A stretch of DNA of 63,591 bases, counting the filler, from Malassezia furfur (lineage: Eukaryota): NCBI GenBank assembly GCA_052055015.1. It is 3 parts of 3 records of this genome, joined end to end, with 100 filler letters (N's around TTAATTAATTAA, not from the genome) between each part and the next. Parts side by side here need not be neighbours in the genome. Positions count along the whole stretch, not along the records: positions 42,610 to 63,591 come from JBQJIT010000170.1; 2 more parts are not named here. One strand, written 5' to 3'. Below the pieces are notes generated by a model. It made no database searches, was not told the DNA's origin, and saw nothing but the letters and a program-made list of their open reading frames with translations. Numbering within the stretch: position 1 is the stretch's first letter; every line of letters starts with the position of its first letter. Position numbers and translations under genes: made by a program. This document shows positions 45,166-63,568 of the stretch, in pieces.

Positions 45166-46759
45166 ATGAAAGTCGACAGCCTTCGCGAAGATGTGTCGAC
45201 AGAAGAGCATGCCCACAAAAGCAGCTTTCCGATAGTCGATGAAGAGAAAGATGTCCCGAATCTCGTTCCCAATGCTAATGAAGTGCAAGAGGATGAGGGG
45301 AAAGAGCACAAACCGTATCTTGTAACATGGGATGAAAACGACGCGCATGAATGTCCTCGCAACTGGTCTCGAAGATACCGAATGTTTATGGTATTTGTTG
45401 TGTCTCTGTATACACTCCTGATGCCTATATGCAGTACGATGAATGCGCCTGCTTTAGACACACTGAAAGAAGAGTTTCATGTGAGGTCTGCGCCTTTGAC
45501 GAACATGATGATGTCAACTACAGTGCTGGCATTTACGGTGGCCCCCATGATCTACTGGCCTATGAGTGAGCGAGTTGGACGCAAGTATATCCTCCAAGTT
45601 TCGAATATCATGTATGTGCGATTGCTCACGCAGATTTCTCCTGTTCAATGTTGGGAGTGGACTCTCTCAAAATGTGCAGCAGATGATCATCTTACGCTTC
45701 TTTGTTGGGTATGCGGGGTGTGCACCTGTTGCCATTGGTGCAGGGATCATTGCAGACCTGTTTGTCCCTGAAGACCGAGGCCATGCGATGGCAATGTATA
45801 CCCTTGCGCCGGTTCTTGGGCCATGTATTGGGCCTATCTTTTCAGGATGGATTATTCAAGGCTACGGAGAGAATAAGTGGCGCTGGATCTTCTGGACATC
45901 AACCATGTTTGGTGTGGCTGTGACCGTACTAGGCTTACTTGTTCTTCGCGAGACCTATGAGCCAATTTTGCTCGAACGGAAAGCCCGACGCCTTCGAAAA
46001 CAGACGGGGATCAAGGAGTGGCACACAAAGTATACTGTCAAAGAGACATTTATGACAAAGCTAGTTCATGGAATGATGCGTCCGTGCATCTTCTTTGCTA
46101 CTCAGCCCGTCGTGACGGTCTCATGCATCTATCAGTCCCTGCTTTTCGGCTGCCAGTATCTGCTCCTCGCATCATTCTCACGGGTGTTTAAAGAGCAGTA
46201 CGGACAGCCGGTCGGCATTGCATCGCTGCACTACATTGCTATGGCAATTGGATATGTCCTCAGTGGACAGATTGGCGGGCGTTTTGTGGATTGGAACTAC
46301 CGGCGTTTGAAAGCCAAAAATGGAGGCGTCGGAGTTCCCGAATTCAAATTACCGACCCTGATCGTCACCGGCGTGCTTATGCCAATCGGATTGCTTTTGT
46401 ACGGCTGGACGCTAGAGTACCGTGTACATTGGATTGTACCCGACATTGGGATTTTCATCATCGCGTGTGGTGTACGTATGGCGATGTTTGTGTGTCCACT
46501 GTATCTGGCAGACGCCATCACGCTGTATACGGCCTCGGCGACGAGCGCCCTCGTTATGACACGGGGCATGTTCTCCTTCACTTTTCCCCTATTTGCTCCG
46601 GATATGTACGAAACATTGGGTCAAGGTTGGGGCAACAGTGTCCTTGCGTTGTGCACGGCCCTCATTGGTCTTCCTGCCCCCTTCATCCTGTACCGGTACG
46701 GTGCGGCTCTCCGTGCACGATCTGCCTACTCGAAACGCGCCATGGAGCTGATGTCCTAA
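45166..46759 (+). CDS. MFS DHA1 drug:H+ antiporter, tandem copy 2
   Basis: Paralog of 43351-44974 with the same intron position (22 nt, 45612-45633). Confidence 0.9.
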
Positions 46760-46869: not shown

Positions 46870-48500
46870 TCATTGCGCTTCTGTTTTGGATGCCTCGTTT
46901 GCAATTTTGCGCTCTCGCACCGCATTCCAATGCGGCCCCCTTCGAATGACAAATTCCAATAGTGGCGCAGAAAGCACCAGGCTGCCTAGACCAAAGACGG
47001 TAAAGGTCCAGCCATTTCCAATGTCGTCAATGACATACTGAACAGCTGCAACAAAACCTGCTCCAACGAGACATCTCCCGATGTTTAGCGCCGCAGTTAC
47101 AGAGGCTGCCCGCCCTGGCGACAAGTCAACGAGGATAGTTTGGCTGCGTCAGCTGGGAATACACACATCGCGTTGAAGTAAAGAATACTCGCAAAGCTCA
47201 GCACAAACTGCAACACCATGGGTGCTGCAATATGCACTGGCTTGGACAAGACTTTGTAGTCAATGCACCACCCATTCGCAAGGGTGGTCACTGTGAACAA
47301 GACATTGAAGAGTAAAGCATGTCGGAGCCGAGCATGGTGAAGATTCATGTTATCGCCGTGCTTACGGCTCGCTTTCGCATACTCATAATCGAGCAGTTTT
47401 CCGGATACAACGCTCCCAATCGCGCTGCCTGCACCCAAAGGAATAAAGCAAAGGCCCGAGATAATAGAGTCGTATTCGTAGGCGGTTCTCAAGGTCGGCG
47501 ACAACGACGAAGACACCATCGTATACACTCCAAATGGGATCGAGAAACTGGTGATCATCAATGCCAAGTCTGCATGGCCAAACATGCGCCAAGGCTTATC
47601 GAACCCCATTGTACGGAGGTTCAAAGGTGGTGGCTTGTGCATCCATTCCCCCTTCTCTGTATCGCGCTTGTCCTGTTCAACAGTGTCGTCCGTCATTGAA
47701 ATGGGAATTACCGTACGCCATATGCCATACGGTTTCAAACTCCCATCTCCCACAAGGAAACGGAGAGATTCGGGAAGAATAAGGACCATTAGCAGCAAGT
47801 ATACCCCACCAAAGGCAGAGAGAAAGAAGAAAACGGCGTGCCAATTCCATGTTTGGGAGACGAGGCCACCCACGATAGGTCCCACAGCAGGGCCAAGCAA
47901 TGTGCCTGTTTGGAAAAAGCCCATATACGTTCCGCGCTCTTTACGGCGAGATACATCACTAATGCATCCTGCTCCAATAGAAATGGCGCTGCTTGCACCA
48001 CATGCCTGTAGCATCCTCAACACGAGAAGAAGCCAGTAAACGCGGGTAAAGGACAAGCCGAGATTAGCAATTAAGAAAACAACAAAGGTAAGAATTAGGA
48101 TGGGCCGTCGTCCGTACGTGTCAGAGAGGGGGGCCCATATCGATGGGGATATCCCTTGAAAAATCATATAGGTCGTCACGGAAAGCAACGTTTGACTGCT
48201 GTCAATGTCGAGGTCATGAGAAATGTCAGGCACGGCCGGCATATAAATATTCACGGAGAAAGGGCTCATGAACGCAGACGTAGAAGCCAGGACAACGATG
48301 AACACCTTTGCTCCTCTTTTGAACGCAGAATAATACTCTTCTTCGTCGTCGATATTGTCTTTTGTGTCATGCGGCGGAACTGGAACCTCAAGTGGCCCCA
48401 GTGATTCGAGATGCACGGAGCTCGCTTCGGAATGGTCCATACTCTTTGAATCACATTTGGACGGGGTGCTTAAACTGCTTCGTAGCCATTTCATAAGCAT
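46870..48500 (-). CDS. MFS DHA1 transporter (Qdr-like), left copy
   Basis: YSAF, NIYMPA, SDTYGRRP, LRMLQA, ERGTYMG..GPAVGPIVGG and LPESLR. 23-nt intron at 47144-47166. Start could be 48500, 48494 or 48440. Confidence 0.88.
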
Positions 48501-48691: not shown

Positions 48692-49801
48692 TTAAGCCGC
48701 ACCTTCGACGCCGACAGAAGCAGCCAGGTTGCATTGCCGGAAAATTCGCACCTCGTTGTCGGCAAATGCACCAACAACAGAATGAAGGACACCACGGTTG
48801 TGGAAGAGGACAAGGTCACCCTCTTCCCAATCATGAGGGTAGACGTATTCCGGTGCGATGGCTGGTCGCTGGAGTTTGTATACAGTATCCCGGACCTTTT
48901 GGAGATCGTCAATCACTGTACCATCGGCCAGGTGGATCTTGCGGATGGCAGAGGGGTGAATCTGCAGCGCAAGCTTCCCGGTGGAAGGGTTCTTCCACAC
49001 CATAGGCAAGATCTGGATCTTGTCCTGCTCAATGGGCGGAAGCTCGTCCTCCGTAAGCTCCTTTCCCTCCGTATAAAGACCCAATCCTGTCGGGAGAGCG
49101 CTACATTTGCTCATCCAGATGTAAGGGTGAGGTGCATATTCGATCTTGCTGCTCTTCACAAACTCCTTGTCCTCGTCGGAAAGAAGCTCGTACATCGTTT
49201 CACCACTGACAAAAGCAGTCGTGCCAAGAGGTACGTCTAGTTTGTCCTCGGTGCCATCATCATAAAGCAAAGTCTGCCGCCGCCCTGCAGGCACTGAGAC
49301 GGCCATAAGAGTTGTGACTTTTGGCGGGCTCCTTCCGTACAGGGCAGCATCAATGTGCCAACGGTAGAATCGGGTGAAGTCCAAGTCCTTCTCTTCCGGG
49401 ATGCGATCACGATGAAAGGTTTTATGATGAGGGTGTCTGAGCTGAATATCCTTCAGACCTTCAAAGTCCTTCACGAACCCGTTCCCAATAACTTGCACCT
49501 GGGGTTGATGCGGAATGGTCTTCAGATCAGGATGCAAGATACTCTTGGCCGAGTTGGGCACGTCTGTTCCATGACCATATGTGTCAGTCTCGGGGTCAAA
49601 GAGCCTTGTCAATTCATACTGGGCCTTGGGCGTAACATGACCTTGGTTCTTAAACAAGATAACATGATGCTTGTATAGTGCATCGTGGATCGTCTTGAAG
49701 TCTTCATCAGAGATATTCTGAAGATCGACACCGTCAATCTGAGCACCAAAGTTGACTTTGCTCCCGGCAGCGGGTGTGAAAGGCTTGACTTGAGCAGGCA
49801 T
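48692..49801 (-). CDS. xanA: Alpha-ketoglutarate/Fe(II)-dependent xanthine dioxygenase (TauD/XanA family)
   Basis: KSILHPDLKTIPHQPQVQVIGNG, TRFYRWHIDAALY (HxD), PPKVTTL, LGTTAFVSG and WEEGDLVLFHNRGVLHSVVGAF match fungal XanA as recalled; purine-cluster context supports it. Confidence 0.88.
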   Translation of the reverse strand: MPAQVKPFTPAAGSKVNFGAQIDGVDLQNISDEDFKTIHDALYKHHVILFKNQGHVTPKAQYELTRLFDPETDTYGHGTDVPNSAKSILHPDLKTIPHQPQVQVIGNGFVKDFEGLKDIQLRHPHHKTFHRDRIPEEKDLDFTRFYRWHIDAALYGRSPPKVTTLMAVSVPAGRRQTLLYDDGTEDKLDVPLGTTAFVSGETMYELLSDEDKEFVKSSKIEYAPHPYIWMSKCSALPTGLGLYTEGKELTEDELPPIEQDKIQILPMVWKNPSTGKLALQIHPSAIRKIHLADGTVIDDLQKVRDTVYKLQRPAIAPEYVYPHDWEEGDLVLFHNRGVLHSVVGAFADNEVRIFRQCNLAASVGVEGAA

Positions 49802-49852
49802 GGTTAACGGAGAGAGATGTATCCCCACACCGATCTAGCTTAAGAGCGGTCC

Positions 49853-49935
49853 CTTATCTGCGGACTCCGCCAAACCACTATTTCTCCCACTTATCAGCGT
49901 ATGAATCAACACTTGCATAATATTTACTGCTTATC
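49853..49935 (-). promoter_or_regulatory. Three GATAAG sites upstream of xanA
   Basis: cttatc at 49853, 49890 and 49930. Confidence 0.55.
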
Positions 49936-50046
49936 AATCGTTTCTGAACGATTCGTGCACATATGTACGACCTTATGACAAAATTCCACCTTAGCACACA
50001 AGTACTCTGTAACTGGTGCTTACAAGGACCTCTCGGTGGAGAGCGC

Positions 50047-51765
50047 CTAGGGTTTGAAATCCTCATTTGTCACAACCGGCTTTTCGGTCGTGTCTGTAGG
50101 ACTTTCCTTGCCACTCTGGTGAACATTGTCATCAAGCATATCCTCGTAGGTTTCGCCTTGCGTGCCATAGTTGTAAGCACCGGCAAACTCGTGCGTAAAG
50201 TCGGACTCGTCGATCTCCTTGAAGTGACGGTTCATGCCCTGAGGAGGAACAGCCAGACAGCAGAGGATATAAACCAAAGCAGAAGAGAAAGTGCCTGTAA
50301 TCCATGCAAGGTCGAAAACATGAATCCAGCCATCCGAAACATGAACGCTGTCATTCACAGTTGCAATAAAACCGGGAGCATTGATGCCAAAGCCAACGAA
50401 ATAGGCAAGGTAGGCCCTCCAGTTGATACCCCATGTGTACCAGTACCAGCCGTGCTTGTCCAGGGTATACAGGTCGGCCACATTGTAGTGCCCACGACGA
50501 ATTAGATAATAGTCAGCGAACATAGGACCGGCGATACAAGAAAGAAGAACGCTGAAAGCGCTCAGGTAGTTGAGGAATTGGTTCGAAGATGTGTAGAGCC
50601 TCCAAGGGTTCATGACAATGGCCACAAGTGCCGAAACGTAACCACCGCGACGAATGTTGATAAACCTGGGGCAAAGTGCGGTCAAATCGCAGCCCGCAGA
50701 AACGGAATTCGCCGCAACGTTCGTAAGAAGCTGCACATAGACGAAACCAGCCGAAATAAACCACAGCCCAACACGAGTTCCGGTGGTCGGGTTCTGGTCG
50801 CCATCGAGCATACGGTTCATGATGGTGACAATATCCCAAAGATCCTCGTTGAACATGACTTGCGCAGCCTTTCCAATAGCGATACCAATGAACGAGGTGA
50901 CAACGAAGACGGCAGGAACAGTAATGAGCTGAGGCCACAGTGCAGCACTGCGCGATTTAGCAGGCGAAGCAAAGTCAGGCGCATTGACGATCAGGGGGAA
51001 CATGTTGTTGAATGCGACAGCAATGCCTCGAATGACTTGCCATGTCAGAGCGGACCCTTCCAAGTTAGCCGAACCGTTAAAGTTATTGAAAACATTAGAC
51101 CGGCCGGCCCGCGAGATGGTCCAACCGAACAAGGAAAAACCGACGATCGGTCCGATAAGCGCTTTAGCGGTGAAAAGGTGGCGAAGCTTGTGAAGCGGCA
51201 CCCAGATCGTTGGAAGCATGAGCAGCCAATAAATCACATAACACAGAATAAAAGACGATTGCGTCTGGGACTCGGGCGACATGATGTTGGGGATGTCCTG
51301 ATCGATGGTGTGCCACATTGTTCGAAGCCATACATGAACACATTCGCCGCCAAGCCATGACTGCACACCGGCCCAGATGCAGGCCATACCGGCGCGATTG
51401 ATGATGGGCCAATAGGACCCAAAAATACCGAATGATGTCCGACAAACTGCCGGGAACTTGATGTGGTATACCGCACCGGGACGCGCATTGAAAACCACGT
51501 ATACACCAACAAGCGAATAACCGATGGCCAGAGCCACAATTGCTTGCCATACGTTCAGGCCTTGGACGACCAAAGCCGAAGACATTGTGAAAGTGTTCAG
51601 GTTGAAGCCATCCGCAATCCAGAAGTTCATGAAGTTGATCCAGTCCCAAGTACGTTTTTCGGGAGGAACAGGCATGAGATCTTCATTGGCGACTTGAAGT
51701 TCGGCGCCAGACATGCCTTCCGGCCGCCGTGTCTCGATTTTCTCGACCAATTTCTTGAACTTCAT
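50047..51765 (-). CDS. NCS1 nucleobase:cation symporter (Fur4/Dal4-like uracil/allantoin/urate permease)
   Basis: NEDLMPVPPEKRTW..FWIAD, GAVYHIKFPAVCRTSFG, NAPDF, NVAANSVSAGCDLTALCPRFINIRRG, PW and GINWRA. Confidence 0.92.
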   Translation of the reverse strand: MKFKKLVEKIETRRPEGMSGAELQVANEDLMPVPPEKRTWDWINFMNFWIADGFNLNTFTMSSALVVQGLNVWQAIVALAIGYSLVGVYVVFNARPGAVYHIKFPAVCRTSFGIFGSYWPIINRAGMACIWAGVQSWLGGECVHVWLRTMWHTIDQDIPNIMSPESQTQSSFILCYVIYWLLMLPTIWVPLHKLRHLFTAKALIGPIVGFSLFGWTISRAGRSNVFNNFNGSANLEGSALTWQVIRGIAVAFNNMFPLIVNAPDFASPAKSRSAALWPQLITVPAVFVVTSFIGIAIGKAAQVMFNEDLWDIVTIMNRMLDGDQNPTTGTRVGLWFISAGFVYVQLLTNVAANSVSAGCDLTALCPRFINIRRGGYVSALVAIVMNPWRLYTSSNQFLNYLSAFSVLLSCIAGPMFADYYLIRRGHYNVADLYTLDKHGWYWYTWGINWRAYLAYFVGFGINAPGFIATVNDSVHVSDGWIHVFDLAWITGTFSSALVYILCCLAVPPQGMNRHFKEIDESDFTHEFAGAYNYGTQGETYEDMLDDNVHQSGKESPTDTTEKPVVTNEDFKP

Positions 51766-51794
51766 GATGTGCGCGAAGGAATGAATGATGAAGC

Positions 51795-51935
51795 GATAAG
51801 CGCATTTTAAGTATGAGTCTAGAGCTCTCGTACCTTGGCATTACTAGACCCTCTTTTCAAAAAAAGATAAATGCTATCTCTAATCAGGGCTGAGTCAGAT
51901 AATGCTTATCAAGTTGGATGGCCACGCATCTTATC
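51795..51935. promoter_or_regulatory. Divergent NCS1/hpyO promoter with a GATA cluster and a TGAGTCA site
   Basis: GATAA or TTATC at 51795, 51866, 51898, 51905 and 51930; TGAGTCA at 51891-51897. Confidence 0.6.
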
Positions 51936-52006
51936 AGGGCACATATGCATGTGCTACGAGATGACACATATAGGACATGTCGGAACCATTTCTACTCTGA
52001 AAGACC

Positions 52007-53587
52007 ATGTCTCAAATCACACTACCTTGGAACGATGCCGCTAAAGTTGCGGGGATGCCTATACCTGAGTGTGACAACCTTCTCCCAGATGCCAAGGAGA
52101 GGCTGACTGCACTTGTGGATCGAATCAAACAAGATATTACCACGACCAACCACCATGCTGACTGGATCCCCCGTGTCAATGACGATGCATCATCTCCTGT
52201 GCAGGATGTTGTCATCATTGGTGCAGGTCAAGCTGGTATGGGTGTTGCTTTCGCACTCAAGCGGGAGCGCATCGATCGTGTGCTCGTTTTGGACGCAGGC
52301 GACGACCCATCCCGCGTAGGACCTTGGAATAGGTATGCGCGGATGCACACGCTTCGCAGCCCCAAGCGCATGAAAGGGATCGAGCTTGATGTGCCTAGTC
52401 TCCACATTCAGCGTTGGTTTGAGGCATGCTACGGAGAGAGGGCTTGGGCCGAAACGGACCTAGTTCCTCGTCTCGATTGGAACGACTACCTCGTGTTTTA
52501 CCGATGGGTGACGGGGATCGACGTTCGCCATCATTCCAAAGTTACTGCTGTCCATCGTCCTGAGACCGAGGATGGACCCTTTGCCGTCGAGGTGGTCGAA
52601 GCTGGCAATCCCGAATCTGTGACGAAGGTTATTCATGCGCGTCGCATTGTCTTTTCTTTGGGATTGATTGGTGGCGGTGGCATCAATGTTCCGGACATGA
52701 TTAGCAGTCTGCCTCGCTCGCGCTGGTATCACACCGAAGAAGAGTTCGACATGAGTTCCATGGATGGCAAGCGTGTGGCTGTCTTGGGTGGAGGTGCTTC
52801 TGGTTTCGATAATGCCGGCACAATCTTGGAGGCTGGAGCTTCCAAGGCCATTGTGTTTATGCGCCGGAATGAGGTGCCCAACAGCAACCCACTGCGCTGG
52901 ATGGAATTCCCTGGTATGCAAGAGCATTTCTTCGACCTTACCGATGAACAAAAGCTAGAATTCACACTGTACAACGGTGGCCTTCCTCAACCTCCAACGC
53001 AACATACCATCTGGCGCTGCTTTGCTCAGCCCAACTTTGAGCTTCGTATGGCAGAGAAGTTTACAAGCATCGAGGATACCGGCAAAGAACTCGTCATCCA
53101 CTCGGTGAACGAGAAGGGTGAGACGTTTGTGTACCATGTTGACCTGGTCATTGCTGCGACAGGCTACAAAGTTAATCTTGCATTGCGCCCAGAAATGAGC
53201 GAGTTTGTCTCCGAGATCCAGACATGGTCTGAGGCGTACCCCCCGTCGACGGAGACGTGGGTCGGCCCGAGCCCTTACTTGGGCACCGGTTTCGAATTTA
53301 CCCCTCGCGACTCCTCTGCTCCCTGGATCCGCCGGCTGCACCACTTTTCGACTGGAGCACGGGCATCCATGGGCGTTACAGGCAACCAATTGTCTGGTAT
53401 TTATGGCGGTCTGAAACGCATGGCCTGGTCCATCGCTACGTCAATTACGAGGGAGAGCTGGCCAACGCTTATGAGTGACTTCCGCCGCTTCGAGCACATT
53501 GAAGTTACAAACGTTGGCAAGCATGAACCAGGAAACAGACCCTATGCCAGTGGACCTCGCTTTTTGGGTGAGCGCACGGTAGTATAA
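52007..53587 (+). CDS. hpyO: FAD/NAD(P)H-dependent monooxygenase, HpyO-type urate hydroxylase-like (bacterial family)
   Basis: Two Rossmann motifs (DVVIIGAGQAG; VAVLGGGASGFD). GPW..ARM.TLRSPK...WFEA.YG..AW....PRL.W.DYL..YR, ATGY and PYLG.GFEF match bacterial HpyO as recalled. Lies next to an HIU hydrolase. Confidence 0.78.
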   Translation: MSQITLPWNDAAKVAGMPIPECDNLLPDAKERLTALVDRIKQDITTTNHHADWIPRVNDDASSPVQDVVIIGAGQAGMGVAFALKRERIDRVLVLDAGDDPSRVGPWNRYARMHTLRSPKRMKGIELDVPSLHIQRWFEACYGERAWAETDLVPRLDWNDYLVFYRWVTGIDVRHHSKVTAVHRPETEDGPFAVEVVEAGNPESVTKVIHARRIVFSLGLIGGGGINVPDMISSLPRSRWYHTEEEFDMSSMDGKRVAVLGGGASGFDNAGTILEAGASKAIVFMRRNEVPNSNPLRWMEFPGMQEHFFDLTDEQKLEFTLYNGGLPQPPTQHTIWRCFAQPNFELRMAEKFTSIEDTGKELVIHSVNEKGETFVYHVDLVIAATGYKVNLALRPEMSEFVSEIQTWSEAYPPSTETWVGPSPYLGTGFEFTPRDSSAPWIRRLHHFSTGARASMGVTGNQLSGIYGGLKRMAWSIATSITRESWPTLMSDFRRFEHIEVTNVGKHEPGNRPYASGPRFLGERTVV

Positions 53588-53604
53588 CCATTCTTTTCTT
53601 TCAT

Positions 53605-53931
53605 TTACGATCCGCGATAGGTACTAAATCCAAAAGGTGACAAAATCAAAGGAACATGATAGTGTGAACTCGCGTCAGCAACGTTGAAAAAAATTTCAAC
53701 TTTTGGATAGAAGTACGCCTTGATATTTTGTGCTTCAAAGTAGGACGCAGTGTCGAAAACCATCCGATAGGTTCCAGTCTCAAGTTGGACACCTGAGAGA
53801 TCACTGGTCCTGCCGTCCGAATTCGTTGTGCCAGACCCAATCAGGGCATCATCCGATTTAAATAGCTTGAATGGCACACCCTCAGCAGGCTTCCCGAGAC
53901 TTGTGTCCAGAACGTGGGTGGAAATGGTCAT
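53605..53931 (-). CDS. uraH: 5-hydroxyisourate hydrolase (transthyretin-like)
   Basis: MTISTHVLDTSLGKPA, TNSDGR and HYHVPLILSPFGFSTYRGS with the diagnostic C-terminal YRGS. Confidence 0.95.
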   Translation of the reverse strand: MTISTHVLDTSLGKPAEGVPFKLFKSDDALIGSGTTNSDGRTSDLSGVQLETGTYRMVFDTASYFEAQNIKAYFYPKVEIFFNVADASSHYHVPLILSPFGFSTYRGS

Positions 53932-54575
53932 CGTTGATGTGGGTGTCGAAGAAGGTAAGCTTTCCCAACGATGATAAGGGTGTATCACGTGTCTCGCACG
54001 GACCAGTTGGGAAAGGATCAGCCTGAGCGTGTTACTGTATCTTCAGCGGAACACAAGTGGCCGAACTTGTTTGTAATAAGCCCTGCCAAGGTGGATAAAG
54101 CGATAATCTCTTTGTATTTTGCATTATACACCTGGATGTTACCCCGGCTACAGGGACCGACTTTTGACAGATTGGGAAACAGCCTTAGATTAGAGGCTCG
54201 ATTAGGGCATTCATCTTCCTATGGAAATTTCTGAACTCAAATTTGATGTCAGGGTAACCAAGTACACCGTTTTGGCTACGTTTTAAAAAAGCGACTTGGA
54301 TAGGGTATCCTATCCCATCTCCACGAATGGGTGAATTCGGAAACACTTCTTTTGCGAAAATATGAACGCGAACTATCGTCTTAACCCTGCACCATATCCG
54401 GCTTAGTTCTTTGCAGTCCCTGCTGGCACCCCTCCCACAATGCATGTTCGAAATATATGTGAAAGCGTTGTATTGGGTCCAGCAGGATCGCCGGTCCGAC
54501 TTGGCAGGTGGGGTACAGTCATAATGTGGAGAATGTCAGGTGCATACCAATCATTAGGGTTCTTTATCTAACACC

Positions 54576-55736
54576 ATGACGTTCCAGCCGATCTCAGAAG
54601 AAGAATTGGGCCGCACGCTCGCCATCACCTCGGTAGAAGTGTCGTCCTCTGCGCTGGGTGGTAAAGTGCTTGGATGCTCGGACGAATGGTTCGCAGCGGC
54701 CACGAACCTGATCAAGCCTGGACCTGCCCAGTCCCTCAAGGGGCAGTTTGGTCCGAACGGCGCTCTCTATGACGGTTGGGAGTCGCGCCGGCACAATCCT
54801 ACGTATGATTGGGCCATTATCCGTCTTGGTCCTTCTGGTGGTGGTCGTATTACTGGCTTTGACGTTGATACTACCACCTTTAATGGCAACGAAGGCCCGG
54901 CGGCGGCGGTGTACGGCGCCTACCTCCCGGAGGGCGAGCAAGACCCCGGCGCGGACGACAGCGTGTGGGAGCTCGTCCTTCCCGAGATTCCCTGTGGCCC
55001 TCTTGCCCACCACATCTACTCGTACTCGGACCCCGAAGGGACGCCCAAAGCCTACACGCACGTCAAACTCCATATGATCCCCGACGGTGGAATTTCGCGG
55101 TTCCGTGTGTACGGTGTAGTGCAAGTCCCGCCGGTGGGTAGTGGTGTGAGTGAGCAGGTCATTCCGGACCACTCCGAGCTGAATACGCTGGATCTTGCGC
55201 ATGTGCTCAACGGCGGCCGCGTCGTGTTTACCAACGACCAGCACTTTGGCATTGGTCCTAACCTTCTTTTGCCAGGGCGTGGCAAGGATATGGGCGACGG
55301 GTGGGAAACGAAGCGTTCGCGCCAGCCCAACCACTTTGACTGGGTAGTGGTCCGTCTTGGTGAGCCGGGCGTGTTGAGCTACATCGAGGTGGACACGATC
55401 CATTTCCTTGGCAATTTCCCCGAGAGCTTTGTTCTCGACGGCTGCAACTTCCAAGGTCCGGGTGACATTCCGCCTGAGCACCATGATCTGAAATCCGCGC
55501 AATGGACTCCCCTGGTGTCGCGTACGAAGCTAGGCCCAGGCAAGCAGCACTATTTCGAGATCGAGAAGTCGAGTCGCGACAAGGTCTTTACGCATGTTCG
55601 TTTGACCATCTTCCCCGATGGCGGCATCAAGCGCTTGCGCATCATTGGCCGTCGTGCCAAGGCATTGGAGGCAGCGGGGATCACAAGCGATGCGCAGCGT
55701 GCGGACCTGCCCACTGTGCCCCTTCCTAGCGCATAA
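54576..55736 (+). CDS. DAL2: Allantoicase
   Basis: Two allantoicase repeats: SDEWFAAA.NL..DGWESRRH..PDGGISRFRVYG and DQHFG..NLLLPGRGKDMGDGWETKRSR..PDGGIKRLRIIG. Confidence 0.94.
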   Translation: MTFQPISEEELGRTLAITSVEVSSSALGGKVLGCSDEWFAAATNLIKPGPAQSLKGQFGPNGALYDGWESRRHNPTYDWAIIRLGPSGGGRITGFDVDTTTFNGNEGPAAAVYGAYLPEGEQDPGADDSVWELVLPEIPCGPLAHHIYSYSDPEGTPKAYTHVKLHMIPDGGISRFRVYGVVQVPPVGSGVSEQVIPDHSELNTLDLAHVLNGGRVVFTNDQHFGIGPNLLLPGRGKDMGDGWETKRSRQPNHFDWVVVRLGEPGVLSYIEVDTIHFLGNFPESFVLDGCNFQGPGDIPPEHHDLKSAQWTPLVSRTKLGPGKQHYFEIEKSSRDKVFTHVRLTIFPDGGIKRLRIIGRRAKALEAAGITSDAQRADLPTVPLPSA

Positions 55737-55859
55737 AAAAAAAAAAAAAAAAATGGCGCCGTGCGGCATGCCAGTGCGCTTATTTTCGTAGCAATGATAC
55801 GAAAATGAAAAAATGATTGTAACAAAGTACGTCGGCAAGCGCTATTGTGTGACAAAGTT

Positions 55860-56843
55860 TTACTTCTCCACGGGATGCACTTTGCGCCAGTGCTCGGCGA
55901 TTTCGCCGCGCGTAGTGACCCAGATACCGCCACCGGTCTTTTTCATCTCGGCGTCCTTTTCCTTGATGTAGTCAAAGAATTTGCGGAGCGCTCCAATGCG
56001 GCCCGGACGGCCCACAACACGGCAGTGCAGACCGACCGTCATCATGCGGGGAGCCTCGTCACCCTCGCGGATGAGCGTGTCTAGGGCGTCCCGCATGTAC
56101 TGGTAGAACGAGTCCGCGTTGAAGAAGCCCGGCGTAATGCCAAACTTCATGTCGTTCACATCCAGCGTGTACGGGACGACAAGCAGGTGCTCGTTCGGCG
56201 TACCGTCCGGAGCAGGCACGTAGTACGGCACATCCTCGTCGTAGGCGTCGCAGTCGTACAGCTTGTGGTGCAGTCCACGGCGCTTGTACTCCTCGTACAC
56301 AAGGCGGCGCGTGTTGGCCGACTGGCGTCCCGTGTACCAGCCGAGAGGGTAGCTGTTCGACGGGCTTGCGTCGTGGATGATGTCGATCGACTTGGCAATG
56401 TGCTCGCGCTCTTCTTCCTCAGGCACCTCGACGTGGTTGATCCAGCGGTAGGAGTGGCTTCCCACCTCGCCCTTAGCCGCCTCCATAGCACCGACCACCT
56501 GCGGGTTGAGCTCGACCGCGCGTGCGACCGCCCAGGACGTAAAGGGGAAGTCGTACTCCTGGAAGAGTTCCAGCAGGCGCCAGATACCGCGGCGTGCGCC
56601 GTATGCATACGAGCTTTCCACGGAGAGGTTGCGCAGGCCGGGCTTGGAGGGCGCGTTGGGCGCGCCGTACTCGCTCAGGTAGTTCTCGGCCGCGGGGTCG
56701 CCGTTCACCAGCGTGTTCTCGCCGCCCTCTTCGTAGTTAATCACGAACGACACACAGACGCGCGCATTGTTCGGCCACTGCGCCTGAGGGATCTTGGGGC
56801 CGTAGCCCTGCATGTCGCGTTCAGCATGGGGATCGTAAGGCAT
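55860..56843 (-). CDS. puuE: PuuE-type metal-independent allantoinase (polysaccharide deacetylase fold), copy 1
   Basis: RDMQGYG..WP..ARVCVSFVINYEEGGE, ES.YAYG.R.G.WR, HSYRW, GWYTGR, PYTLDVNDMKF and GLHCRVVGRPGR. Confidence 0.85.
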   Translation of the reverse strand: MPYDPHAERDMQGYGPKIPQAQWPNNARVCVSFVINYEEGGENTLVNGDPAAENYLSEYGAPNAPSKPGLRNLSVESSYAYGARRGIWRLLELFQEYDFPFTSWAVARAVELNPQVVGAMEAAKGEVGSHSYRWINHVEVPEEEEREHIAKSIDIIHDASPSNSYPLGWYTGRQSANTRRLVYEEYKRRGLHHKLYDCDAYDEDVPYYVPAPDGTPNEHLLVVPYTLDVNDMKFGITPGFFNADSFYQYMRDALDTLIREGDEAPRMMTVGLHCRVVGRPGRIGALRKFFDYIKEKDAEMKKTGGGIWVTTRGEIAEHWRKVHPVEK

Positions 56844-57287
56844 GGTGATGGTGCTGGTTATACCCGGAAGAAAGCCGTAGATGCAGCTGTCATCTTGGCA
56901 TGGACTAATCAGGGGGCGGTTTGATAAGCCGATAGCCGAGGATCAGCGAGATGAATCATCGTGGGGTAAAATATGCAGCCGGTAATCTCAACTCCGCGCA
57001 TTCGCGGAGGTGTTTGGAAGGACGACGGTCCCGCCCGGACCGTGCCGCTGATCGTACCAGGGGTACGCATTTAAGCGAGGCATGCTGCCGTGCGAAAGGT
57101 GCGCACGAGGACCTTCGCACGGACCACCATGAAATAGGGCCGTGGGGAAATGCCCTCGAGCGACACACCTATGCTGTTGTGAATCATATTTTTCCATCGC
57201 ATTTGTACGGAAGCGTCTATAATGTGTAGCACATAGTTGATGCTTGATGGGGACGACGACGTGCGATCATGCGCAGAATGCCCCTAT

Positions 57288-58280
57288 TTATTCCACCGGA
57301 TGCACCTTGCGCCAGTGCTCCGCAATCTCGCCGCGCGTCGCGACCCAGATGCCGCCGCCACCGGCCTTTTTCATTTCGGCATCTTTCTCCTGAATGTAGG
57401 CAAAGAACTTGCGCAGGGCGCCGACGCGGCCAGGACGACCGACGACGCGGCAGTGCAGGCCGACCGTCATCATCCGAGGCGCCTCTTCACTCTCGAGAAT
57501 GAGTGTGTCCAGGGCGTCCACGAGATACTGGTAGAACGACTCGCCGTTGAAGAAGCCGGGCGTAATGGCGAACCGCATGTCGTTGGCATCGAGCGTGTAC
57601 GGAATCACCAGCAAATGTTCATTCGGCGTGCCGTCCGGTGCAGGCACATAGTATGGCACATCGTCGTTGTACGCGTCCGAGTCGTACAGTTGCTTGTGCA
57701 TGCCACGCCGCTTGTACTCTTCGTACACCAAGCGGCGCGTGTTGAGCGACTGGCGGCCAGTGTACCAGCCCATAGGGTAGCTGCCTGACGGGCTGGCATC
57801 GTGGATCACATCGATGGCCTTGGCGATGTGTTCGCGCTCGACATCCTCAGGAACTTCGACGTAGTTGATCCAGCGGTACGAGTGGCTGCAGACTTCGCCG
57901 CCGGCCTCCTCCATGGCGGCAACTGCGCCCGGGTTGAGCTCGACTGCACGGCCGACGGCCCAGGAGGTAAAAGGGAAGCGGTACTTGCGGAAGAGGTCGA
58001 GCAAGCGCCAGAGCCCACGGCGCGACCCGTACTCGTATGCGCTCTCGACGGATAAATTGCGAAGGCCCGGCGGCGCGGGGCCTGTGGGTGCGCCGTACTC
58101 GGTCAGATAAGCTTCGGCGCCTGCATCGCCGTTCAGGAGCGTATTTTCACCGCCCTCTTCGTAGTTGATCACAAACGAGATGCATACCTGCGCCTTCCCC
58201 GGCCATTGCGGCTGGGGCACGTTGGCACCGTAGCCGATGAGGTCGCGTTCCGCGTGCGGGTCGTACGCAGACGAGGTCAT
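57288..58280 (-). CDS. puuE: PuuE-type allantoinase, tandem copy 2
   Basis: Colinear close paralog of 55860-56843 with the same motifs. Confidence 0.85.
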   Translation of the reverse strand: MTSSAYDPHAERDLIGYGANVPQPQWPGKAQVCISFVINYEEGGENTLLNGDAGAEAYLTEYGAPTGPAPPGLRNLSVESAYEYGSRRGLWRLLDLFRKYRFPFTSWAVGRAVELNPGAVAAMEEAGGEVCSHSYRWINYVEVPEDVEREHIAKAIDVIHDASPSGSYPMGWYTGRQSLNTRRLVYEEYKRRGMHKQLYDSDAYNDDVPYYVPAPDGTPNEHLLVIPYTLDANDMRFAITPGFFNGESFYQYLVDALDTLILESEEAPRMMTVGLHCRVVGRPGRVGALRKFFAYIQEKDAEMKKAGGGGIWVATRGEIAEHWRKVHPVE

Positions 58281-58468: not shown

Positions 58469-60066
58469 TTACTGAAGTCCCAATTTTGCTAGTCGTTCTT
58501 CTCGTGCCCTGCTCCACTGCGGGCCATAGTGCATGACGATCCACACCAGCGGCGTCGAGATTGCAAAGCTCGACAACGAGAATATGACAAAGGTCCAGCC
58601 GCTGCCGATCGCGTCGACCGCGTATTGGACCGCCGCGACAAAGCCGGCGCCCACGAGGCACCGTCCGATGTTGAGTGCAGCAGTCACGGACGCCGCGCGC
58701 CCGGGCGAGAGATCGACGAGGATGGTTTGGCTGTGTGAGTGGGTGTAGCGTACATCGAGTTGAAAAACATGATGCAAGTCAGCGTCATGAGGAAGAGCAG
58801 CACCATGGGCACGGCGATGTGCACGGGCTGGTCAAACTCTTTGACGTCCATGCACCATTCGCTCGCGAGGACGAATGCGGTAAAGATGAAGTTGAACAAG
58901 AAGGCGTGCTTCAAGCGCGTGTGGTACAAATTGAGGTTTTTCCCGTGTTTCTGGAACGCGCGGCGGTACTCAAAGTCGAGTAGTTTGCCCGCGAGGATGC
59001 TGCCCAGCGCGCTGCCGATGCCCAGCGGCATGTAGCAAAGGCCGACCTCGATGCTGTTGTAATGGTATACGTTGGTGAGCGCGGGCGACAAGGACGAGGT
59101 CACCATGGTGTAGACGCCAAAGGGGATCGCAAAGCTCAGGATCATGAGTGCGAGGTCGGGCTGGAGGAAGGCGCGCCATGGGCGGTCGAAGCCCATGGAC
59201 TGCAGGTTGAGTTTGGGCGGTGGGTTCATCCTGTGCGTGTGCTGTTTTTCCGCGTCGGTGCCCTCGAGGGAATCGTCGACCATGTGCAATGGGATGAGGG
59301 TGCGCCAGATGCCATAGGGTCTCAAGCTGCCGTCGCCCACGAGCGCGCGGAGCGACTCGGGCAGCATAAGCACCATAAATACGAGGTAGCCGCCTCCCAG
59401 GGCCGATAAGAAGAAGAAGACGGCGTGCCAGTCCCAGCGGTGCGCGACGAGTCCACCGACGATGGGCCCAATCGCCGGTCCGAGGAGGGTGCCCATCTGG
59501 AAGAAGCCCATGTATGTCCCCCGCTCCTTGCGGCGCGACACGTCGCTGATGCACCCTGCGCCGATCGAGATGGCGCTGCTGGCGCCCGATGCCTGGAGCA
59601 TGCGCAGGACGAGGAGGAGCCAGTACGCCTGCGTGAACGAAAGGCCGAGGTTGGCGATGAGAAACACGACAAACGCCATGATGAGGATCGGGCGGCGGCC
59701 GTACGAATCCGAAAGCGGCGCCCAGAACGAGGGCGTGAGGCCCTGGAAGATCATGTACGTCGTGATGGACAGGAGGGTCTGGCTGTCGGTGATGTGCAGG
59801 TCCTTGGTGATCTCCGGCACGGCGGGCATGTAAATGTTGATGGCAAACGGACTCATCACGCCGGAAACCGACGCGAAGACCACGACAAAAATCCGCGCGT
59901 TTTTGGTGAACGCCGAGTAGTGTTCCTCGTCGTCGACGTGAGGACGCGGCTGGTCCTCTGGGGGCACGGGCACCTCGATGGCACCCACCGACTCGAGCTG
60001 GGGCGAGGGTGGTGCCGCCGCATCTGGCGGCTCTGGCTCTTGTGCGTTGCTTGCACTTGATCGCAT
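58469..60066 (-). CDS. MFS DHA1 transporter (Qdr-like), right copy
   Basis: Paralog of 46870-48500 with a 23-nt intron at the same position (58731-58753). Shares LSPGRAASVTAALNIGRCLVGAGFVAAVQY. Confidence 0.88.
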
Positions 60067-60931: not shown

Positions 60932-61092
60932 GGTTGTGTGAAAAAGCGAGCGATCGGCGCGGGGCAAGTGCGCACGGGTCACACCCGGGCCAGGTGACCG
61001 CCTCCACGTGGCACGGCGGGGCGGGCGGGCGAGCGGACGCGCGAGGAAGCGGGCGCCGCGGGCGGATGGACGTGGCGGCTATGTTTGGTTGG

Positions 61093-63568
61093 CTACGGGG
61101 CGCGCTCGGCGTCGGTGTGGCCCAGACCCCAGCGGCCGATGGTCTGCATGGCGTGCGCGTCGCCGGAGGCGATCTGGTCGTCGCGCAGGAGGGTGGAAAG
61201 CATTGTCCATGGGTTCTTGCCGCCGCCGTGCTGCAAGACTTCCTTTTTGAACATCTCGCCGGCCTCGCGCGAGAGAGGCGCGTGCGCAAACACCTTGCGC
61301 CACACGCGCGCGGCGATCGCGCGGTCGAAGAGGTAGCTGTAGTACGTCGCGCCGTAGCCGAACAGGTGGCCGAACTGTCCCTGCCACGTGGCGTCCTCGA
61401 CGGGGGGGAAGAGGCCCATGGTCGCCTGGACGCGCTGGAGCTCGGCGGTGGAGCTGAACGACGGGTCGCCCGCGCGCTCCGCGTGGTACTGCTGGTCGAG
61501 CTGCGCGAGGACGATCTGGTGCTGTGTGTCGAGCGCGTCGAGCTCGTGCTGCGTGCGCAGGTGCGCCGCGAGCTGGTCGTACGGGAGCGGCGCCCCCGTG
61601 CGGTGGTGGTGTGCGGTGAGCTGCACCACCTCCGGGTTCACGAGGAAGTGCTCCATGAGGATGGACGGGAGCTCGACAAAGTCGGTGGCGCAGCGTGTGC
61701 CGGACACGTTGTGGAACTCGGTGCGGCCGATCATCGCTGCGTGAGTGTGGCGCGGACGTACAGTGGATGGCATGGCCCATTTCGTGGAAGAGCGTCTCGA
61801 CCTCCTGCCAGCGGAGGAGGCTGACGCCGCCCTGTGCGCGCGAGGGCCACTGGAAGTCGGTCATGAGCACCACGACGGGCAGCTGGAAGCGCCCCGGGCG
61901 CCCTGGCGACGTGGCGCCCTCGACGTCGAGCAGGTTCGAGAGGTCGACGTCGCGCGGCAGCTCGGGCGCGTCGCCGAAGCGCACGTCGTTCTCTACGTCG
62001 TCGCCGTCGATGCGGCGCGAGCACCGCACCGTGTAGTGCGCGGCGCTCGGCGGCTTGCCTGCGCGCGCGTACAGGTCGCAGTAGATGGTGCCGATGACGC
62101 CGCCCTCGGTCTCGTCGACGACCTCGAGCTTGAGCACGTCCGGCGACCACACCTCGCCCGGCTGCACGGGCGCGGCGCGGAAGTGGATGCCGTACAGCAG
62201 GTAGAAGAGGCGCGAGAGCCCCGTGAACACGCTGCCGAGCGACAGGTACGGCACGAGCGGCTGCAGGTCCGGCGGGTGGTAGGTCTGCACGTAGACGTCC
62301 GAGAGGTACTCTCGGTCCCACGCGTACACCGGCGCGTCCGGCGGCGTCTTGAGCCGGCGCAGCGCGTCGACCATCGCCTGCGCGCGCGGGCGCTGCGCGT
62401 CGGCGGTGATGTGCAGAAAGTCGCTCACGTTGCTCGGCGTGCCGGCCATCTTGTCGACGAGCGTCATCTCGGCGAAGCTGCGCTTGCCGGTGAGCACCGC
62501 GAGCTCGTGGCGCGCGCGCAGCAGGCGCTCGAGCACGTCGACGGGCCCGTGGCGCCCCGTGTAGGTGATCATGTACGCGAGGCGCCGCGCGCGCTCGTCG
62601 GGCGCAAACTTGCTGATGCAGTGCAGCTCCCACGAGCCCGGCACGACCGGCAGCGTGTTGGAGCGGCGCGAGAAGCCCGTCTGCGCCCGCAGGCTCTTGA
62701 CGAGGCTCGCGTCCATCGTGCGCAGCAGGTCGAGCGGGAAGTCGGTCACCTGGTCGCTCGTGCGCGCCGAGATGTCCTGCAAAAACGCACGGCCGAGCAC
62801 GAGGATCTCGTCGCTGAGCGCGACGAAGCGCTCGCGCTCCTGCGGCGGCAGGTGGATGCCCGACTTCTCAAAGTCGCGCAGGAAGATGGTCGCGACCGCC
62901 TGCGCCTCCTCGGGCATGCTCGCCCAGATGTCGGCGTCGGCCATCGCGCGGCGCAGCGAGTCGTACAGCCCGGTGTGGGTGTTGAGGATGTTCATAAAGT
63001 TGCACAGGTACTCGTACGCGGCGTTCGACGCGTCGGCCCACGCGGGCTCGGGGTGTGCGTGGCGCACGAGCTCCGCCATGTCGATCACGCCGCACAGCAG
63101 GTCGCTCAGCCGGTCGAGGTTCGGCACGACGTGGGCGAGCTCGGAGCGCGGCGCGTCGGGTGCGCCAGCGCGTGCGATGCGGTTCACGAGCAGCTGTGCG
63201 CGCACGAGGGTCTTTTCCGCGAGCGTCAGGAACGCCTCGGGCTCGCGCAGCGCCTCGACCTTGAACAGGCCGGTCGGCAGGCCGGCGGTGTCCTGCGGCG
63301 TGTGCAGGCGCGGGCGGTCGAGCAGGTCGCGCAGGGTCTCGTGGTCGCGCTCGACGCTCTGTGCGACGCCGGCCGCGAGGGCGTGGGCCTCGGCGGCGGG
63401 CGAGCGCGCAAGGTGCATCTGGCGTGGCTCGAAGCGCCAGCGCTTCACCTTGCCGAGCCGCTGTGTGCCGTCGAGTGGCATCGCTGCCTCGTGCGAGGTC
63501 GCGACGGAGCGCGCGGCGCGCGGCGCACGCGGCAGGCGCGCCGGGCGGAGTGCGTGGCGCGCGAGCAT
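61093..63568 (-). CDS. OCT1: Mitochondrial intermediate peptidase (M3 family)
   Basis: Presequence MLARHALRPARL, LDRLSDLLCGVIDMAE, DFEKSGI, FHEMGHAIH|SMIGRT (25-nt intron at 61737-61761), TRCATDFVELPS and FGHLFGYGATYYSYL. Confidence 0.94.

Follow-up and report, generated by a model that had tools for sequence, protein, structure and literature searches.

Here, we analysed a stretch of 63,591 nucleotides from Malassezia furfur (assembly GCA_052055015.1), in which three parts of the genome are joined by filler and which is referred to as the window throughout, and focused on a cluster of seven genes at positions 48692-58280, within the part derived from JBQJIT010000170.1. The first of these genes is a xanA orthologue, predicted to code for an Fe(II)/alpha-ketoglutarate xanthine dioxygenase (48692-49801, minus strand; Pfam TauD, E 7e-40). 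It is followed by a gene for an NCS1 (Fur-type) nucleobase/allantoin:cation symporter (50047-51765, minus strand), which matches PF02133 over positions 1-440 of 440 (E 7e-112) and TIGR00800 with 385 bits (cut-off 353.1), and by a plus-strand gene (52007-53587) for a 526-aa FAD/NAD(P)H monooxygenase with matches to Pfam Pyr_redox_3, Lys_Orn_oxgnase and NAD_binding_9, a putative HpyO-type urate hydroxylase that we refer to as the flavoprotein. Next to it are uraH, coding for a 5-hydroxyisourate (HIU) hydrolase (53605-53931, minus strand; TIGR02962, 125 bits versus 87.45), an allantoicase gene (54576-55736, plus strand; TIGR02961, 335.8 bits versus 277.9, with two PF03561 repeats) and two tandem copies of puuE, coding for PuuE-type metal-independent allantoinases (55860-56843 and 57288-58280, both minus strand). 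All seven open reading frames (ORFs) cover their Pfam and NCBIfam family models nearly end to end, and the closest relatives of the encoded proteins are Malassezia proteins. As each gene reads as one uninterrupted ORF, the cluster genes are intronless, and since none of the other ORFs of at least 70 aa, whether in the intervals or on the opposite strand, matched Pfam, they are contiguous, as described in the first-pass annotation of this DNA. The alternative enzymes that it named for three steps are also present (XanA, an HpyO-family flavoprotein and PuuE). Its term operon-like has to be dropped, because the promoters are divergent and convergent and the cluster is a eukaryotic one.

The same gene set is present in nearly the same order within 9 kb on L040, an independent, Malassezia-like metagenome contig. 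The L040 proteins are 75% (XanA), 67% (NCS1, encoded in inverted orientation), 70% (flavoprotein), 73% (UraH), 60-62% (pieces of the allantoicase) and 67% (a single PuuE) identical to those of the window, and the L040 flavoprotein is 99% identical to protein cluster P0004 and in our tree groups as sister with that of M. equina. In addition, NCBI locus tags of cluster genes are only a few genes apart in M. psittaci (_002277, _002281 and _002283), M. nana (_003142 and _003144) and M. cuniculi (_003454 and _003456), so that the clustering is seen on L040 and, by locus tags, in three named species. The adjacency of these genes is therefore not a matter of chance. Genes for consecutive steps that are linked and kept together between species, the hallmark of a fungal metabolic gene cluster, are found in the window, on L040 and in the tags of the three species, and we conclude that the cluster is real, conserved, fungal and catabolic, and of mosaic ancestry. 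The gap between the flavoprotein gene and uraH is 13-17 bp in the two Malassezia lineages, and in the window the two genes converge with 17 bp between them. L040 additionally codes for a DCG1-like Asp/Glu/hydantoin racemase between uraH and the allantoicase gene, a ureidoglycolate-lyase domain on the allantoicase, which the window allantoicase lacks, a Zn2Cys6 transcription factor by puuE, a second, Fcy-like NCS1 protein, an Amidohydro_3 protein and a catalase, none of which has a match in the window at a tblastn E-value of 1e-3 or below. Conversely, the puuE duplication, the paralogous flanking genes for major facilitator superfamily (MFS) transporters and a tandem MFS gene pair are features of the window with no counterpart on L040. 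The L040 catalase is of the large-subunit type and is encoded five genes from the flavoprotein gene (L040:275-2392, minus strand), and the gene for the Zn2Cys6 factor, a candidate pathway regulator, is divergent from puuE (L040:16483-18444, plus strand). The L040 allantoicase gene (L040:13050-14726, plus strand) is split into three ORF pieces, with PF04115 at the C-terminal end; the contig is a low-coverage one by its name, and the breaks are either introns or errors.

We propose that this conserved Malassezia cluster serves to draw nitrogen from xanthine, urate and allantoin and that it was assembled from genes of differing ancestry, a reading in which we have good confidence. Substrates would be imported by the NCS1 permease, for which allantoin, urate and uracil are candidates, perhaps with help from the flanking MFS transporters. 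XanA would hydroxylate xanthine to urate at the expense of alpha-ketoglutarate and without molybdenum cofactor (Moco), and the bacterial-type HpyO-family enzyme would use FAD and NAD(P)H to convert urate to HIU without the release of hydrogen peroxide (H2O2). UraH would then turn HIU into 2-oxo-4-hydroxy-4-carboxy-5-ureidoimidazoline (OHCU), which would give rise to allantoin. The two PuuE copies would open the allantoin ring to yield allantoate, from which the allantoicase would produce urea and ureidoglycolate, and the genes may be subject to nitrogen-catabolite control through GATA sites in three promoters. The first-pass annotation spoke of a run from xanthine to urea, and the gene content is as it described, but neither an OHCU decarboxylase nor a ureidoglycolate lyase was found in the window, and this weighs against the pathway as drawn. 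No OHCU decarboxylase was detected by Pfam among 173 ORFs (72 and 101 in two sets), a scan that left intron-split genes and ORFs of less than 120 aa outside 42-61.5 kb uncovered, and a uraD-uraH fusion from Corynebacterium kroppenstedtii matched the window through its uraH half only in a tblastn search, with no uraD relic 5' of uraH. Similarly, no ureidoglycolate lyase or racemase was found in the window by Pfam scans of ORFs or by tblastn with the L040 proteins. The conversion of OHCU to allantoin is thus either spontaneous or carried out by an enzyme encoded elsewhere. Spontaneous decay would yield racemic allantoin, and L040 does code for a racemase.

Among the best 120 of 313 matches to the flavoprotein, the only named eukaryotes are Malassezia species (M. 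psittaci, M. nana and M. equina), and the next relatives come from Dietzia (58-60% identity) and Corynebacterium (48-56%), followed by Rothia and Rhodococcus. In a maximum likelihood tree of 31 rows, the eight Malassezia rows form a clade (starred support of 100/99) within a group of Dietzia, Corynebacterium and Rothia proteins (98/99, starred), to which Rhodococcus is sister (100/100, starred). Judged by this placement, the gene has actinobacterial ancestry and entered the fungus from a bacterium. The Malassezia clade is divided between the proteins of the window and M. psittaci and those of M. nana and M. equina, from which we infer that the transfer is older than the split of these lineages. 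The cluster did not arrive as one block from bacteria, as the accompanying Malassezia genes are just 24-48% identical to their bacterial neighbours. For a joint transfer of uraH with the flavoprotein gene, the signs are mixed: the two genes are adjacent and convergent in three bacterial loci, yet the Malassezia UraH is only 34-48% identical to the bacterial proteins and shows no special affinity to those of the three loci.

The first gene product of the cluster matches PF02668 (TauD) over model positions 2-266 of 267 and carries the HxD...H iron triad, with 'RWHIDAA' and the distal histidine in 'FHNRGVLHS' aligning with the TauD motifs. It is 96% identical to a protein of M. brasiliensis, a species to which the source yeast is close, 81% identical to one of M. 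psittaci and 66-74% identical to proteins of Pezizomycotina, many of which are named XanA or xan-1 in their source records. It shares the 50%-identity cluster P0238 with these Pezizomycotina proteins and nests among those named XanA or xan-1, in a set outside which the A. nidulans XanA lies; by sequence it is a XanA orthologue, for which xanthine hydroxylation is predicted. All named non-Malassezia relatives among the best 120 matches (66-74%) belong to the Pezizomycotina, with no other basidiomycete, and among the representatives of 50%-identity clusters the next full-length one after P0238 is P0362, with 52% identity, which the Atlas places, as a lead only, with clusters dominated by Basidiomycota. 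In a tree of 53 rows, the Malassezia proteins (99/97) are sister to that of A. wentii (95/94) inside a clade of Aspergillus and Penicillium (96/91), all three values starred. The first-pass annotation had not foreseen such an origin in the Aspergillaceae.

A transfer of xanA from Pezizomycotina is probable on the basis of this placement, and we lean, by a smaller degree, towards a donor among the Aspergillaceae. The alternative that fares best is that the flavoprotein gene is the sole foreign gene of the cluster and that XanA was inherited vertically and is highly conserved, so that its nesting within the Aspergillaceae is an artefact of the tree; we consider this unlikely. An approximately unbiased (AU) test did not reject a monophyletic Pezizomycotina clade with Malassezia outside (p 0.116, difference in log-likelihood 14), the outgroups have very long branches (1.4-4.5 changes per site), and orthologues of XanA have been reported in basidiomycetes in a review by Scazzocchio (PMC5611559), all of which speaks for vertical descent and against a transfer. 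The AU test rejected a grouping of Malassezia with P0362 (p 0.018), a grouping chosen after the tree had been seen and in which the basidiomycete identity of P0362 is the Atlas lead, which lessens its weight for a transfer. What speaks against vertical descent, in our view, is the pattern of relatedness. The best 120 matches, all with 66% identity or more, include no basidiomycete outside Malassezia, in contrast to PuuE, where Ustilaginomycotina follow right after Malassezia. Moreover, the A. wentii protein is as close to that of the window (73.9%) as to that of Penicillium (73.6%) and closer than it is to Colletotrichum (66.5%), while the window protein and P0362 share 49.6%, and the nested position has starred support. 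The same review describes a transfer of XanA into Phytophthora and an 'anomalous position' of the U. maydis protein (PMC5611559), which marks xanA as a mobile gene.

The two puuE copies are 80% identical to each other, and matches to solved PuuE structures reached E-values of 3.9e-96 (3cl6) and 2e-97 (1z7a). Both proteins carry the motifs 'NYEEGGE' and 'SHSYRW' and with them the altered metal triad, in which Glu-His-Trp stands in place of Asp-His-His and by which, reportedly since the work of Ramazzina in 2008, PuuE is defined. The same substitutions mark PuuE in U. maydis according to PMC8092297, in which PuuE1 is mentioned and is not itself the object of study. A point against the assignment is that neither copy reaches the NCBIfam equivalog-domain cut-off of TIGR03212 (370.3 bits for copy 1 and 378.4 bits for copy 2, cut-off 424.6); we read this shortfall as eukaryotic divergence, since the model was built for bacteria. 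No fewer than 14 named Ustilaginomycotina, from Kalmanozyma, Ustilago, Sporisorium, Tilletiaria, Jaminaea and further genera, have orthologues with 54-63% identity, which follow directly after the Malassezia proteins, with bacterial PuuE proteins ranking behind them (49-55%). As it is shared with other Ustilaginomycotina, PuuE is the ordinary allantoinase of the subphylum and vertically inherited. The first-pass description of a mixture of fungal and bacterial-type parts therefore holds for the flavoprotein, nested within Actinobacteria, but not in the sense of a recent bacterial import for PuuE. In most homologues from Ustilaginales (P0256-P0267, about 520 aa), PuuE is joined to a GFA domain (PF04828) that is missing from the Malassezia proteins, and near-identical PuuE-GFA architectures are labelled as Planoprotostelium fungivorum and Cichorium endivia, where they are probably contaminants or transferred genes. 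The UraH protein ends in '...STYRGS', of which YRGS is what we take to be the signature of HIU hydrolases, and among solved structures it is matched best by HIU hydrolases and transthyretin-like proteins, with transthyretins ranking lower. Compared with the window proteins, the products of the genes neighbouring the bacterial flavoprotein homologues show identities of 23-26% for NCS1, 34-48% for UraH and 32-37% for the allantoicase. For the origin of NCS1, the Atlas entry 'commonest Ascomycota' for the three nearest clusters provides a lead only.

Its sequence relatives and their genomic context make the flavoprotein most likely a urate hydroxylase of the HpyO type. Of the 34 bacterial flavoprotein loci, 31 carry an allantoicase, uraH, NCS1 or puuE homologue in the fetched flank, and only L003, L004 and L010 do not. 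In C. kroppenstedtii (L031), the flavoprotein gene abuts a uraD-uraH fusion, which is followed by genes for a xanthine/uracil permease, an allantoicase, an amidohydrolase, a DUF6986 protein, an NCS1 protein and a racemase. The fusion protein of this locus combines OHCU decarboxylase and HIU hydrolase (L031:11532-12398, minus strand), and the DUF6986 protein, encoded between the amidohydrolase and NCS1 genes (L031:16751-18235, minus strand), is a candidate component of the ureide pathway. Five bacterial genomes that carry the flavoprotein gene were searched for urate oxidases: uricase (Uox, PF01014) and PuuD (PF06181) were found in none of them and OHCU decarboxylase in all five, and named control genomes gave positives in the same searches. 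The actinobacterial clade, the ureide loci and the five genomes with uraD and without uricase or PuuD are what lead us to the HpyO-type assignment, and the same logic of genomic context and missing uricase was used for alternative urate oxidases in PMC4562309. For P0105, a 639-aa protein related to the flavoprotein, the OHCU-decarboxylase domain PF09349 is listed as well, a natural fusion that links the family to urate oxidation. In the supplement to PMC4562309, HpyO is defined by Pfam NAD_binding_9 (PF13454), a model that the flavoprotein matches with 31.2 bits (cut-off 21.8). Two relatives, from Rothia and Aliidongia, are named 'FAD-dependent urate hydroxylase' in their source records, which is an automatic annotation. 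The GxGxxG-type dinucleotide motifs for FAD and NAD(P)H, G72/G74/G77 and G261/G263/S265/D268, are unchanged in all 16 sequences compared, and the predicted structure (pLDDT 84, pTM 0.86) contains two Rossmann domains and is closest to class-B flavin monooxygenases, with 14-17% identity; no solved structure of a close relative was found. The label hpyO-like given in the first-pass annotation is thus supported at the level of the Pfam family and of genomic context and extends to these levels, the characterised Xanthomonas HpyO not being part of the comparison.

Several observations count against a role in urate oxidation. The best Pfam matches are generic (Pyr_redox_3 and Lys_Orn_oxgnase, the latter with 49.5 bits), the nearest solved folds are the ornithine and lysine N-hydroxylases KtzI, PvdA and SidA, the search of the five genomes covered Uox and PuuD, with HpxO-type hydroxylases outside it, and we found no published work on this protein family in fungi. 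One might hence argue that the flavoprotein is an N-hydroxylating monooxygenase or an oxidoreductase acting in stress, including nitrosative stress, and that a uricase encoded elsewhere oxidises urate. We regard this as quite improbable. Automatic names such as 'L-ornithine N5-monooxygenase' and the presence of four ferric-reductase genes in the window would fit such a function, but identity to the N-hydroxylases is limited to the 14-17% given above, and this alternative leaves the ureide and urate clusters around the bacterial homologues, the P0105 fusion and the five uricase-less genomes with uraD out of account. In two Malassezia lineages, furthermore, the gene is separated from uraH by 13-17 bp, and the sole known substrate of UraH is the product of urate oxidation.

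The stress reading also draws on published work, as the Ianiri 2020 preprint lists an oxidoreductase, MSYG_3153, as a candidate for bacterial transfer in most Malassezia species and files it under stress resistance with genes induced by nitrite. The flavoprotein is likely to be MSYG_3153, given the oxidoreductase name, the candidacy in most species and the L040 catalase gene, which lies five genes away, as MSYG_3147, the catalase named as another transfer candidate in the preprint, would from MSYG_3153. The DCG1-like racemase and allantoicase genes just beyond on L040 and the NCBI name 'NAD(P)/FAD-dependent oxidoreductase' of the Dietzia homologues point in the same direction. The indirect nature of this identification has to be set against our interpretation. 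In the preprint, MSYG_3153 is among the most nitrite-induced genes of M. sympodialis together with the allantoicase gene DAL2 and DCG1, and this company argues against a stress function; if MSYG_3153 is the flavoprotein, co-induction of three cluster members has already been observed. The known transfers into Malassezia (flavohemoglobin, catalase and MSYG_3153; Ianiri 2020, Wu 2015) have actinobacterial donors of the skin niche, as is the case for the flavoprotein here. In these publications, the transferred genes are treated singly and as stress functions, whereas we propose a cluster and a role in urate breakdown. The available text of the preprint contains neither 'purine' nor 'urate', and that of Wu 2015 contains none of 'purine', 'uric', 'allantoin' and 'xanthine'. 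Literature searches limited to top-ranked results turned up neither an account of the cluster nor one of a function in urate breakdown, and nothing relevant on Moco in Malassezia. The cluster accordingly seems to be undescribed, as supposed at first, but the bacterial origin of the flavoprotein is probably already in print under the name MSYG_3153 and with a stress function (Ianiri 2020).

An MFS transporter gene lies on either side of the cluster, one beside xanA (47097-48500, minus strand; MFS_1, E 1.5e-46), a possible cluster member, and its paralogue beside the second puuE copy (58684-60066, minus strand; MFS_1, E 9e-50); the two share 64-66% identity. Two further MFS_1 genes, 66% identical to each other, are arranged in tandem on the plus strand (43351-44974 and 45166-46759), and their membership in the cluster is uncertain. 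Each of them consists of an N-terminal and a main ORF piece and probably contains one intron. The GC content at third codon positions (GC3) divides this region. It is 0.79-0.88 in the housekeeping genes of the window and 0.78-0.83 in the two puuE copies (0.82 in copy 1) and the right-hand MFS gene (0.83), and it drops to 0.47-0.59 in a block at about 42.6-55.7 kb that comprises three MFS genes (0.47-0.57 in the tandem pair and 0.55 in the gene beside xanA), xanA (0.57), NCS1, the flavoprotein gene and uraH, with the allantoicase gene at 0.67 and AT-richer intergenic DNA. A second low-GC stretch, again with AT-richer intergenic DNA, is located at 30-36 kb of the window and contains ferric-reductase paralogues. 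Both putatively transferred genes are inside the low-GC3 block; as these transfers are old and GC3 on L040 is uniform (0.48-0.65), the contrast may be owed to regional recombination or to expression and not to a late acquisition. For the two stretches, foreign origin, low recombination and low expression are candidate causes. That the block, with a GC3 of 0.47-0.67 against the higher values in housekeeping genes of the same contig, marks bacterial DNA joined to fungal DNA by misassembly or contamination can be dismissed as highly improbable, given the same gene order on L040, the locus-tag neighbourhoods in three NCBI Malassezia genomes, the position of the flavoprotein gene (54% GC) between fungal genes with GATA-rich promoters and the single clade of Malassezia flavoproteins, which broadly tracks species groupings.

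Enrichment of GATAA sites in three promoters suggests that the cluster is under the nitrogen or nitrogen-catabolite control of GATA factors. The divergent NCS1/flavoprotein promoter (51766-52006) contains five GATAA/TTATC sites in 241 bp (0.70 expected, P 0.0006) and ranks first for this motif among the 250-bp bins of the window, the region upstream of xanA (49802-50046) contains three (0.61 expected, P 0.022) and the divergent uraH/allantoicase promoter (53932-54575) contains four (1.5 expected, P 0.07). The combined count of 12, versus 2.8 expected, was reached in none of 20000 shuffles. The xanA/NCS1 promoter of L040 has five GATAA sites in 160 bp, with 0.31 expected. No such enrichment was seen at the puuE promoters. 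Sites of the UaY-like form CGG-N6-CCG are not enriched in the window (43 versus 38.5 expected; 28 of 100 shuffles gave 43 or more), and none were found in the L040 promoters. None of the seven cluster proteins ends in an SKL-type peroxisomal signal, which is compatible with a cytosolic location and would suit a pathway that does not produce H2O2.

As a fungal catabolic cluster, the Malassezia locus is comparable to the Saccharomyces cerevisiae cluster of DAL genes (Wong and Wolfe 2005, via PMC13751858 and PMC5611559). Both are nitrogen-related ureide clusters that were assembled secondarily and contain an NCS1 gene (DAL4) and an allantoicase gene (DAL2), and L040 shares with DAL the DCG1-type racemase and ureidoglycolate lyase. 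DAL, however, starts at allantoin, relies on the metal-dependent Dal1 and came about when native genes were relocated and urate oxidation was lost (PMC13751858, PMC5611559). In Malassezia, the cluster starts from xanthine and urate, its allantoinase is PuuE, and one or more of its genes came from bacteria. Bacterial urate clusters, those with HpyO in Xanthomonas (Michiel 2012, via PMC4562309) and the Corynebacterium and Dietzia loci (L001-L033), likewise combine an NAD_binding_9 flavoprotein gene with uraH, allantoicase, NCS1 and racemase genes in the absence of uricase. In L011, L025 and L031, the flavoprotein gene and uraH form a convergent adjacent pair as in Malassezia. The bacterial loci differ by the fusion of uraD with uraH, by a permease of the NAT family and by an amidohydrolase resembling Dal1. 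In Aspergillus nidulans, the purine genes (xanA, uaZ, uaX, uaW, alX and aaX) are dispersed and include those for a cofactor-less uricase and a Dal1-type allantoinase, under UaY control. The Cryptococcus neoformans genes are not known to be clustered and code for a uricase, Dal1 and a fused DAL2,3-type allantoicase/ureidoglycolate enzyme, as on L040. Malassezia resembles A. nidulans in its Moco-independent XanA (PMC5611559, PMC5746545), which is 66-74% identical to XanA of Pezizomycotina, and C. neoformans (PMC3646786) in being an animal-associated basidiomycete yeast and, if the proposed pathway holds, in degrading urate for nitrogen. A 2026 review on the gene organisation of urate catabolism (PMC13751858) treats, in its available text, the puc, hpx and DAL systems only and makes no mention of HpyO.

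Elsewhere in the window, the neighbouring genes are eukaryotic housekeeping genes (RRP12, GPI16, LETM1 and genes for a DEAD-box helicase and a DHHC palmitoyltransferase), and no tRNA genes were found in the window. A gene for a purine nucleoside permease (NUP, PF06516; 21370-22557, minus strand) represents a further purine-related transporter, 26 kb from the cluster in window coordinates. It contains an in-frame TGA at 21853-21855, and since this stop lies in a 24-nt stretch with intron-like ends (GTGCGT...CTGAC...CAG), it probably marks a tiny intron rather than a pseudogene. The four ferric-reductase (FRE/NOX-type) paralogues (15241-18624, 29170-30828, 31411-33036 and 33732-35681), three of them in tandem on the minus strand, span about 20 kb of window coordinates. 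A peptidase M3 gene (61079-63568, minus strand) is read in two overlapping frames, with Pfam positions 5-255 on one ORF and 254-455 on a second (61093-61773), due to either a frameshift or an intron.

Fungi rarely have clusters for primary catabolism, with DAL as the textbook case, and the Malassezia cluster covers earlier steps, those from xanthine and urate. It indicates that a catabolic cluster can arise by the addition of horizontally acquired genes to native ones. The cluster probably contains the first flavin urate hydroxylase of a eukaryote, whose bacterial origin had probably been listed earlier without being understood. More tentatively, we consider it possible, at somewhat less than even odds, that a eukaryote has rebuilt its purine catabolism with parts taken from other organisms: an NAD(P)H-dependent urate hydroxylase from skin-type Corynebacteriales would have replaced the peroxisomal, H2O2-producing uricase, an Aspergillus-like XanA, and perhaps the adjacent NCS1 gene, would have come from a mould, and native PuuE and allantoicase would complete a cytosolic, cofactor-light pathway of three ancestries that draws nitrogen from host urate and xanthine. 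If the flavoprotein does hydroxylate urate, the HpyO/HpxO-type solution, which is limited to few bacteria according to PMC4562309, would have its first eukaryotic representative, and this would account for how a lipid-dependent yeast of the skin could use urate with neither H2O2 formation nor targeting to peroxisomes. A defined role would also fall to a gene that Malassezia acquired by transfer and that has hitherto been placed under stress resistance, and the 'nitrosative-stress' genes MSYG_3153, DAL2 and DCG1 might be re-read as one purine regulon. Urate, xanthine and allantoin are nitrogen compounds found on animal skin and in bird droppings; growth phenotypes on them are predicted, and the differences in cluster content between Malassezia lineages may track host range.

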